Shown here piece after piece: positions 5,073 through 19,366 of a stretch of DNA of 64,000 nt (its first letter is position 1; each line of letters begins with the position of its first letter). The position numbers and the translations under genes are program-made. The DNA is taken from positions 27,860 to 91,859 of the forward strand of contig JBEULP010000108.1 in the NCBI GenBank assembly GCA_041287245.1. Direction: 5' to 3'. The notes below the pieces were generated by a model that saw nothing but the letters and a program-made list of their open reading frames with translations, ran no database searches and was not told the origin of the DNA. This stretch comes from Infirmifilum sp. Lineage in GTDB: Archaea > Thermoproteota > Thermoprotei > Thermofilales > Thermofilaceae.

Positions 5073-5097
5073 CTTTCAATTCATTCTCTTCGGATAC
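5073..5097 (-). CRISPR. Solitary CRISPR repeat variant GTATCCGAAGAGAATGAATTGAAAG
   Basis: The reverse complement matches the 18934/18998 repeat at 23 of 25 positions and ends in ATTGAAAG. An AT-rich leader-like stretch lies 5' on the minus strand. No second repeat is visible nearby. Confidence 0.7.
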
Positions 5098-17105: not shown

Positions 17106-17218
17106 ACACCTTATGTAGCATGCTATTTATAAAAAATCTTTCCAGCCAGGGCTACCGATTACATCCAATTCTTAAGTCATATTTTTTAACTCCCTCCACC
17201 ATTCAGATAATGACGTGC

Positions 17219-18550
17219 ATGCCCGAAGAGTTTGAACCATACCCCGAATTCGTAAAGTGGGACCATATCCCAGACCTCGAAAGAGAGGTTGTAGTTACAT
17301 TCCGCCTTGTCCCCGGGGAGGGTTTCACCGTGGACGATGCTGCAGGAGCTGTTGCCGCAGAAAGCAGCGTCGGGACTTGGACTACACTCTACGAGTGGTA
17401 CGACAAGAGCCGGATTAACAGTTTGAAGGGCAAAGCGTATCAGAAAAAGCCCCTGCCAGACGGGTCTTTCCTTGTCCGAGTTGCTTACCCGGTAGAGCTT
17501 TTCGAGGAAGGGAACATGCCTGCATTTCTAGCATCAGTTGCTGGCAATATTTTCGGCATGAAACGCGTAAAGTCTCTAAGGGTTGAGGACATATATCTAC
17601 CTAAGCCATTCCTTGACTTTTTCAAAGGACCATCTAAGGGAATACCGGGTATACGCGAAGTTATGCGTATCTCAAGGAGGCCCATAATAGGTACGGTTCC
17701 CAAGCCTAAGGTCGGTTACTCGCCTGACGAGGTTGAGAGGCTCGCCTACGAACTACTTATAGGCGGTATGGATTATGTTAAGGATGACGAGAACATTGCC
17801 AGCCCAAGCTACTGCAGGTTTGAGGAGAGGGCGAAGGCTATAATGAAGGCGATCGACAGGGCTGAGAGGGAGACGGGCGAGAGAAAAGCCTGGTTTGCAA
17901 ACATCACGGCAGATGTTAGGGAGATGGAGCGAAGGCTGAAGCTCGTAGCAGAGTATGGAAATCCATACGTTATGGTCGATGTGGTAATAACTGGATGGTC
18001 AGCTCTGACATACATCAGAGATCTCGCCGAGGAGTATGGACTAGCTATCCACGGCCACAGAGCCATGCATGCGGCATTCACTCGGAACGAGTATCACGGC
18101 ATATCAATGTTTACCCTTGCGAAGCTCTTCAGAATTATTGGAATAGACCAGCTTCACGTTGGTACACCCGAGGTAGGCAAGCTGGAAGCTAAGGCAGTCG
18201 ACGTTCAGCGCAACGCTCGTGTCCTGAGGGATGCAGCGTATGTCCCGGACTCCGAGGACTTCTTCCATCTTAATCAACCCTTCGGCTCCATGAAACCCTC
18301 CTTCCCCGTGGCAAGCGGTGGGCTACACCCCGGGACTCTCCCGGAGGTCATAAGGAAGATGGGGGAAGACATAGTGATACAAGTTGGCGGTGGTGTTGTC
18401 GGCCACCCAGACGGCCCTAGAGCTGGTGCTGCAGCCGCGAGACAAGCGGTCGAGGCTACGCTTGAGGGAATAGACCTCTCCGAGTACGCAAAAACCCACC
18501 ACGAGCTTGCACGGGCTATCGAGAAATGGGGCTTTGTAAGGCCTGCGTGA
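17219..18550 (+). CDS. rbcL: Ribulose-1,5-bisphosphate carboxylase, archaeal form III
   Basis: AAESSVGTWT, PKPKVG, DYVKDDE, HGHRAMHAA and ASGGLHPG. The start is set at ATG 17219 (MPEEF, 443 aa). Confidence 0.95.
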   Translation: MPEEFEPYPEFVKWDHIPDLEREVVVTFRLVPGEGFTVDDAAGAVAAESSVGTWTTLYEWYDKSRINSLKGKAYQKKPLPDGSFLVRVAYPVELFEEGNMPAFLASVAGNIFGMKRVKSLRVEDIYLPKPFLDFFKGPSKGIPGIREVMRISRRPIIGTVPKPKVGYSPDEVERLAYELLIGGMDYVKDDENIASPSYCRFEERAKAIMKAIDRAERETGERKAWFANITADVREMERRLKLVAEYGNPYVMVDVVITGWSALTYIRDLAEEYGLAIHGHRAMHAAFTRNEYHGISMFTLAKLFRIIGIDQLHVGTPEVGKLEAKAVDVQRNARVLRDAAYVPDSEDFFHLNQPFGSMKPSFPVASGGLHPGTLPEVIRKMGEDIVIQVGGGVVGHPDGPRAGAAAARQAVEATLEGIDLSEYAKTHHELARAIEKWGFVRPA

Positions 18551-18551
18551 A

Positions 18552-19366
18552 ATGGCTGAGGCTAAGACTCTGATCATAGCCCACGGCGACTGTGACGGGG
18601 TTACTTCGGCAGCTCTAGCGCTCTCTATATACGCAGGTAAGGTCGTGTTCTCTCACCCTGTAGGCATCCTTGGAGACCTGGACGAGTTCTCAGAGGATGC
18701 GGACAGGATAGTAATCCTAGATATAGCCTTAGATGAGAGGCATTGGAGACAACTTGCGGAAAGACTCGCTGGGTATTGGGAAGCTATATACGTGGATCAC
18801 CACCCCCCTCCTGTGGGATCGCTAGAGTTCCTGCGGGAGAAAGGAGTGAAAGTAAACCACGAGGAGAATGCGTGCACAGCAGAGCTCACCTTCAGGTATC
18901 TAAAGCCTAGGGCTGACCTTAGCCGCGTAGCTCGTATCAGAAAAGAATGAATTGAAAGATGGCGTAGTCACCTATGCATCCGTATAGAGCTACGCGGGTA
19001 TCAGAAAAGAATGAATTGAAAGAGCAGGCTACGGTAATAGAGGAGGCACGCGAGAAACTCCCAAAGCGCTTAAAGGTTCTGAAGAACATAGCGTTTGTAG
19101 AGCACCCAGAGGCCAGCCTGGGGATAATGGCTTTCTATGCCGCAGTGGTCTCAGGTATGAGGGTGGGAGTTGCTATAGAAGTTAAAGACGGGTGGGCGGT
19201 AATGAGCCTAAGGGCTAAGGATCCACGCGTAGACCTCAACAGCCTGCTACGTAACATCGCGCCTTCATTTAAGGGCCATGGCGGAGGACATAGGAGTGCG
19301 GCAGGCGCCAGGGTCCCCCTAGAAAATCTGACAGCCTTTCTTTCAGCCCTGGATGAAAGCCTTTAG
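18552..19366 (+). pseudogene. DHH/DHHA1 phosphoesterase gene disrupted by a CRISPR repeat-spacer-repeat that replaces its middle
   Basis: The N-part (18552-18933) has HGDCDG, ILDIA, YVDHH and CTAEL. The C-part (19023-19366) has SLR...GGGHRSAAG (DHHA1). The first repeat supplies a TGA at 18948-18950, and the central region is missing. Confidence 0.85.
18934..19022 (+). CRISPR. Mini CRISPR array: two identical 25-nt repeats GTATCAGAAAAGAATGAATTGAAAG and one 39-nt spacer
   Basis: Repeats at 18934-18958 and 18998-19022 end in the archaeal ATTGAAAG handle. The spacer at 18959-18997 is ATGGCGTAGTCACCTATGCATCCGTATAGAGCTACGCGG. Confidence 0.88.

Follow-up and report, generated by a model that had tools for sequence, protein, structure and literature searches.

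The 64,000-nt stretch of DNA analysed here (the window) raises the question of how a short CRISPR unit came to lie inside a protein-coding gene. An earlier note proposed that a native array had acted as repair donor, carrying a spacer against this gene (S2) between two others, S1 and S3, identical to the sequences that now flank the insert. Two 25-nt repeats, identical at 25 of 25 nt, enclose S2, which is 39 nt long, and the insert amounts to 89 nt in total (Table 1). Both junctions fall exactly at repeat edges, as had been claimed, and the claims that target-site duplication and leader are missing were also borne out: no duplicated target was present, and the 60 nt upstream of repeat 1 are coding DNA with 23% A, versus 48–63% for A-rich leaders. 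The repeat is the host's native one. The same sequence follows a leader on contig C35 of the host genome (G000), beside a type I-A operon, and makes up 71 of the 72 repeats of one array in a relative (G005). The length of S2 is the modal length among 502 distinct pooled spacers (112 of them, S2 included). Judged from the position of the leader in other arrays, the insert lies in the array sense direction on the + strand. Compared with a canonical array, it has identical repeats of the host family and a spacer of family-typical length, and it lacks a leader before the first repeat. An Rfam search gave 0 matches, and a promoter scan with a bacterial-type model gave a chance-level result.

Table 1. 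Features at the interrupted gene, in coordinates of the window
Feature	Coordinates	Strand	Basis
RuBisCO large-subunit gene, stop 1 nt before DHH start	17120..18550	+	
5' part of DHH-DHHA1 phosphoesterase gene, 127 codons; frame enters repeat 1, stop at 18948-18950	18552..18933	+	
TCA, weak candidate type I-A PAM, 39 nt before left junction	18892..18894	+	sequence
Putative S1: left homology arm, or half-integration prespacer	18895..18933	+	inference
Surviving 11 PAM-distal bases of S2 protospacer	18923..18933	-	orthologue/spacer alignment
CRISPR repeat 1, native 25-nt, leaderless	18934..18958	+	repeat identity, upstream A content
Spacer S2, 39 nt, antisense to gene; 28 nt of target in deleted part	18959..18997	+	orthologue alignment
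CRISPR repeat 2, identical to repeat 1	18998..19022	+	sequence identity
3' part of DHH-DHHA1 gene (DHHA1 domain), resuming 216 nt past left junction in orthologue coordinates	19023..19366	+	
Putative S3: right homology arm, any original PAM replaced by repeat end	19023..19061	+	inference

The interrupted gene is intact in five of seven genus relatives, and G000 lacks query residues 126–197; the best full-length homologous proteins are 63–65% identical, and the named homologues come from Infirmifilum. The gene is broken, since its 5' frame stops inside repeat 1. Because the RuBisCO stop lies directly before the DHH start, the insert is likely co-transcribed with RuBisCO in the array sense direction, which is the orientation for processing. 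One nucleotide match spans RuBisCO and DHH-DHHA1 (17120–19366) in three relatives, which hints at a shared pathway. Loss of the DHH-DHHA1 gene is tolerated here.

The reverse complement of S2 gives RVALYGCIGDYA in the frame of the DHH gene. Of its 39 nt, 26–28 match in three orthologues, and the first 11 overlap the left flank. The spacing of the orthologues to the right junction is 227 nt, which sets the deletion at about 216 nt. The left junction thus cuts through S2's own target, which has lost 28 of its 39 nt together with the PAM side. The 11 PAM-distal nt of the S2 protospacer are still present in the left flank. When the S2 guide was compared with G000, it found those 11 bases at its own locus and no other site within 12 mismatches. 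No intact DHH allele was found in G000, the middle of the gene is nowhere in the assembly, and a 24-nt S2 pattern gave 0 loci in metagenome contigs, a set from which near-identical records may have been held back. To judge from the alignment, the S2 guide would match an intact DHH allele. The anatomy, repeat-S2-repeat in place of about 216 nt, was confirmed. A fold-back template switch was considered as the origin of S2 and rejected, as the inverted copy continues for 28 nt past the junction and has repeats exactly at its ends.

The CRISPR-Cas complement of G000 includes cas1, cas2, cas4/csa1, cas6, a type I-A cas7, cas3' and eight RAMP matches. Absence of cas6 as the cause of self-spacer tolerance was rejected, PF01881 giving 0 matches and PF10040 one above the cut-off. 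A-rich leaders were found in all eight groups of the complete genome G001 and in both groups examined in G005. No second two-repeat unit between two coding flanks appeared among 50 array groups (46 loci, some redundant), and viral contigs did not contain the repeat. Diverged type I-A operons on L016 (C35) and L018 (C85) adjoin arrays whose repeats are one base apart; the pair may be separate loci or come from two strains in the bin, whose contamination is 5.05%.

Several further joins between repeats and other DNA were observed. On C35 (L016:4939–5311) a leader and repeat run into a long foreign-looking ORF, and run X2, one of three metagenome runs described below, shows leader-repeat-41-nt spacer-repeat instead of the ORF, so that the C35 join is likely a spacer-mediated chimera in the same assembly. 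On C17 (L017:1–5552) a repeat-spacer-repeat at the contig end is followed by 5.4 kb of mobile-element-like genes with a truncated ORF, probably another spacer walk, or else a real array-element recombinant. L052:584–1394 holds an 811-nt coding stretch exactly between two array repeats, the reciprocal of the DHH insert, which is either a chimera or a real capture. Non-leader DNA is joined straight to a repeat at L028:1500, L043:911, L064 (minus strand, 1500) and L034:83; the repeat-to-long-DNA joins of L028, L043, L052 and L064 are similar to that of C35. In addition, a leader with a single repeat and no spacers, that is, an empty array, was found at 5073–5097 of the window (minus strand) and at C82:62192, C82:36278 and C64:15843. 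Contigs of X2 and X3 (about 1.6–2.2 kb) hold the leader and repeat of two empty arrays, and at least the one whose X3 contig continues as C82 does is likely real. Degenerate solitary repeats without an A-rich leader occur at C70:2571, where the repeat overlaps the end of a long ORF, C82:52304, C96:24097, C6:10158 and C80:2543.

Whether the insert exists as a molecule was studied in three runs of hot-spring metagenomes (X1–X3), all from one study and perhaps one sample, as k=31 contigs at about 6-fold depth. A single contig crosses the entire insert in X1 (3236 nt) and in X3 (2916 nt). The X2 contig holds a single repeat at the site, with 64 nt skipped. Four of the 31-nt words needed for this form do not occur in the two-repeat form, an indication of real molecules that had lost the spacer. 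Loose ends were seen at neither junction in any of the three runs, and no contig breaks there. S2 is uncovered in X2, and C35 beyond 5004 in all runs; neither was scored as absence. Seven positions in 1401 nt vary across the runs, 18349 and 18814 being common to two runs and 18917, inside S1, being found in one (X3), whose contig there also carries the upstream gene and the repeat. The repeat at the DHH site is thus common to a polymorphic population, which fits an old event, recombination or homing alike, and mosaic contigs cannot separate these.

There is nevertheless a serious doubt, in that the insert could have been made by the assembler, along a path that left an intact gene, passed through S1 and S3 in a separate array and then returned to the gene. 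The contigs overlap by 141 nt, which we take to be typical of an iterative-k metagenome assembler, the C35 join of the same assembly is contradicted by X2 and resembles others listed above, and the evidence consists of contigs rather than reads. However, the insert is crossed by single contigs in X1 and X3, the X3 contig with the variant at 18917 includes the upstream gene and the repeat, and the gene middle is missing from G000. In a toy graph test, run on random DNA at similar depth and with a simplified pruning unlike Logan's, a contig spanning the site came out of 0 of 300 trials (five depth settings) when the gene was intact and the S1-S2-S3 array separate, and of 37 of 60 when the junction was real. 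When a donor was kept beside the real junction, the figure was 1 of 60 for equal depth and 43 of 60 for quarter depth; a donor in most cells is therefore disfavoured, since at equal depth it would break the spanning contigs. The short-k mis-join that had been feared is likewise disfavoured, and the insert is probably real. We consider an artefact very unlikely, and kept that much doubt because the runs are of one study, possibly one sample, with contigs at such depth, and because this assembly makes spacer chimeras elsewhere (C35).

The most credible origin of the insert, which we hold to be rather probable, is the scar of an array-templated repair after a type I-A self-cut of the chromosome. 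A self-spacer, S3, would have been acquired first and would have primed the uptake of S2 from about 190–230 nt upstream. A cut guided by S2 would then have broken the gene inside the S2 target, with degradation towards the PAM side. At the right chromosome end, S3 (about 39 nt) would have provided the homology for recombination with the array, and the left end would have met repeat 1 through either a third spacer, S1, or a stalled Cas4-Cas1-Cas2 half-integration. Later the donor spacers would have been lost from the array, and some cells would have dropped S2 by repeat-repeat recombination.

Several observations agree with this order of events, beside the exact repeat edges, the modal length of S2, the spanning contigs and the cas genes described above. 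The deletion runs from the junction in the S2 target to its PAM side, the direction in which 3'-5' Cas3 activity would be expected to degrade the displaced strand (PMC4005679). In Haloferax, self-targeting is followed by uptake near the target, with mostly coding-strand spacers upstream of a template-targeting guide and fewer from the other strand, according to the excerpts consulted of PMC7521656; S3 as the oldest spacer, with S1 and S2 upstream on its PAM side, would match that self-primed pattern. In addition, arms of 35–40 bp suffice for gene replacement in Sulfolobus (PMC6249222).

The two ways of joining the left end would yield the same final sequence. The three-spacer version, which is that of the earlier note, is a possibility that we hold tentatively. 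The half-integration version, to which we give somewhat less credit, could replace S1 because the left join lies inside S2's target. The break end, still attached to the chromosome, would have been trapped to give gene-PAM-39 nt-repeat 1-S2-repeat 2-S3, and S3 would have paired with the right end. It would require two self-spacers, would explain the junction inside the S2 target and would leave no finished S1 to attack. In Cas4 systems, the prespacer's non-PAM end is the first to be joined, at the leader-repeat edge, while Cas4 keeps the uncut PAM end, as found for types I-C and I-G with short substrates (bioRxiv 10.1101/2022.05.30.494039, in the part consulted).

Several points stand against repair from the array, among them that no donor array was found, that a finished S1 would keep its PAM in the mended gene, that the assembly holds a spacer chimera at C35, and that none of the 50 array groups shares the architecture. 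S1, S2 and S3 were found as spacers neither among 501 other spacers, mostly from relatives, where the longest stretch shared with S1, S2 or S3 was 10 nt, nor in G000 outside the DHH site, nor in another context on any contig of X1–X3. These absences do not refute the model, because the arrays of this population were hardly assembled. What had been proposed thus keeps its exact repeat edges, its cas genes and the precedents for arm length and uptake, while an S1, S2 or S3 spacer in an array is missing and a retained donor is disfavoured. The array as donor is plausible and unproven.

The PAM evidence is also of limited weight. TCA (18892–18894) and CCT (18889–18891) do lie where the earlier note placed them, but as PAM support they are weak, since YC occurs at some PAM position for spacer lengths of 36–42 at 57% of window positions by chance (13% for exactly 39), and we estimate a likelihood ratio of roughly two-fold at best. 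In the type I-A system of T. tenax, which reads the PAM on the 5' side, CCA and CCT are functional, TCA lowers cleavage, and targets flanked by the repeat tag are spared (PMC4005679, in the part consulted). The repeats would therefore protect S2 and S3 but not S1, whose 5' PAM survives, so that the suggested neutralisation of both remaining targets applies to S3 and fails for S1. S1 and S2 overlap by 11 nt, which bars one molecule as the source of both; two DNA copies would have been needed. Searches for a PAM yielded none: 281 spacers gave no clean protospacer in G000, one G005 array gave 0 matches to phages and plasmids, the C35 and C17 patterns gave 0 matches to viral contigs, and 502 distinct spacers against G000 and all loci gave three rows outside intact array context, none informative. 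At three of the five leaderless repeat junctions of L028, L034, L043, L052 and L064, hand-picked and chosen post hoc, YC lies upstream at exactly 39 nt (p ~0.02), which may be taken as a hint only.

Other events could have left a real insert of this kind. Cas1 integrase might have joined both broken ends to repeats, treating the chromosome as a giant prespacer, after which repeat-repeat recombination would leave repeat-S2-repeat and strip S2 from the array. One self-spacer would then be enough and S1 and S3 unnecessary; the exact repeat edges, the missing donor and the existence of one- and two-repeat forms would be explained, and in strand polarity both joins agree with Cas1 chemistry. Against it, the substrate of Cas1-Cas2 is one short duplex, so that capture of two separate long ends would have taken two independent events, and no in vivo case was found among the titles and abstract openings searched, so we regard it as unlikely. 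The single-repeat form in X2 raises the thought that a single-repeat allele came first, from an S1-repeat-S3 donor or by end joining, and that S2 was acquired later, at this leaderless repeat, from an intact copy of the gene. We find this highly improbable: the site has no leader, S2 would have to stem by chance from just the part that was deleted and reach across the junction, and of the two events spacer loss between repeats is the commoner. To a neo-CRISPR, made by off-target Cas1-Cas2 integration into the gene, we give almost no credence. A self-derived spacer of normal length at a non-array site would suit it, but the flanks are true array repeats instead of a duplicated piece of the gene, 216 nt were lost, and the orthologues show no repeat-like sequence at the site.

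Repair templated by the array stays our preferred reading, and it might have a consequence of its own. The insert might act as a natural CRISPR homing cassette, in which the S2 guide attacks intact alleles and the knockout spreads like a gene drive, an idea that we think quite unlikely to be correct. Read-through from the RuBisCO promoter and Cas6 cutting would produce an S2 guide, perhaps also an S3 guide, against incoming intact copies; a cut copy would be repaired from the insert allele, which would so spread across strain backgrounds. Homing would explain why the repeat is at the site in all three runs amid polymorphism as near as 119 nt (two runs) and 16 nt (one run). The mechanism is unproven, and there is a single example. 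If it is real, a natural CRISPR array has served as repair DNA at its own self-target, which would give a concrete origin for leaderless mini-arrays of true repeats in genes and a route to survive autoimmunity, and the locus would record three consecutive self-spacers or a trapped acquisition intermediate. Additionally, a chimera made by spacers (C35) and a similar-looking junction that withstood checking occur in one assembly, which is relevant to the mining of arrays from metagenomes.

Finally, the insert was compared with the nearest known systems. Neo-CRISPRs reportedly carry a spacer between direct repeats at a non-array site, the repeats being the duplicated target site and no deletion being made. 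As in neo-CRISPR (Nivala 2018), the spacer of the insert lies between repeats away from an array, but these are native repeats, a 216-nt deletion is present and the target is not duplicated. In the open-licence literature, as covered by titles and abstract openings, no report was found of a segment of a native array inserted at the chromosomal site that it targets. Duplication of a repeat-spacer unit independent of adaptation (PMC8860593, in the part consulted) is unlike the insert. In phage spacer-target recombination (Watson 2018; Varble 2019; as cited in PMC8616872), homology of spacer length joins array to target with junctions at repeat edges, where those of the insert also lie. Here, in contrast, the target belongs to the cell itself, joins were made at both ends, and the target was deleted, with a leaderless mini-array remaining in the gene. 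The orphan anti-cas arrays of E. coli (Almendros 2016, per PMC8616872) are similarly small arrays that match a lost gene and could block its return, but they lie at the CRISPR locus and target cas genes, whereas the insert sits inside its own target without a leader. Escape from type I-B self-targeting in Haloferax volcanii (PMC7521656) resembles our case in the loss of the protospacer and in new spacers from near the cut. In H. volcanii, either microhomology links the ends or homologous recombination restores them, and an array segment at the break is not described in the excerpts consulted; at our locus the protospacer and its PAM side were likewise removed, and 89 nt of insert stand in place of a direct microhomology join. 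A further parallel is the microhomology-mediated gene inactivation of Sulfolobus islandicus (PMC6249222), where part of a crenarchaeal gene gives way to a cassette with arms of 35–40 bp; that is a laboratory method with a PCR donor, and the donor of the insert would be a native array.
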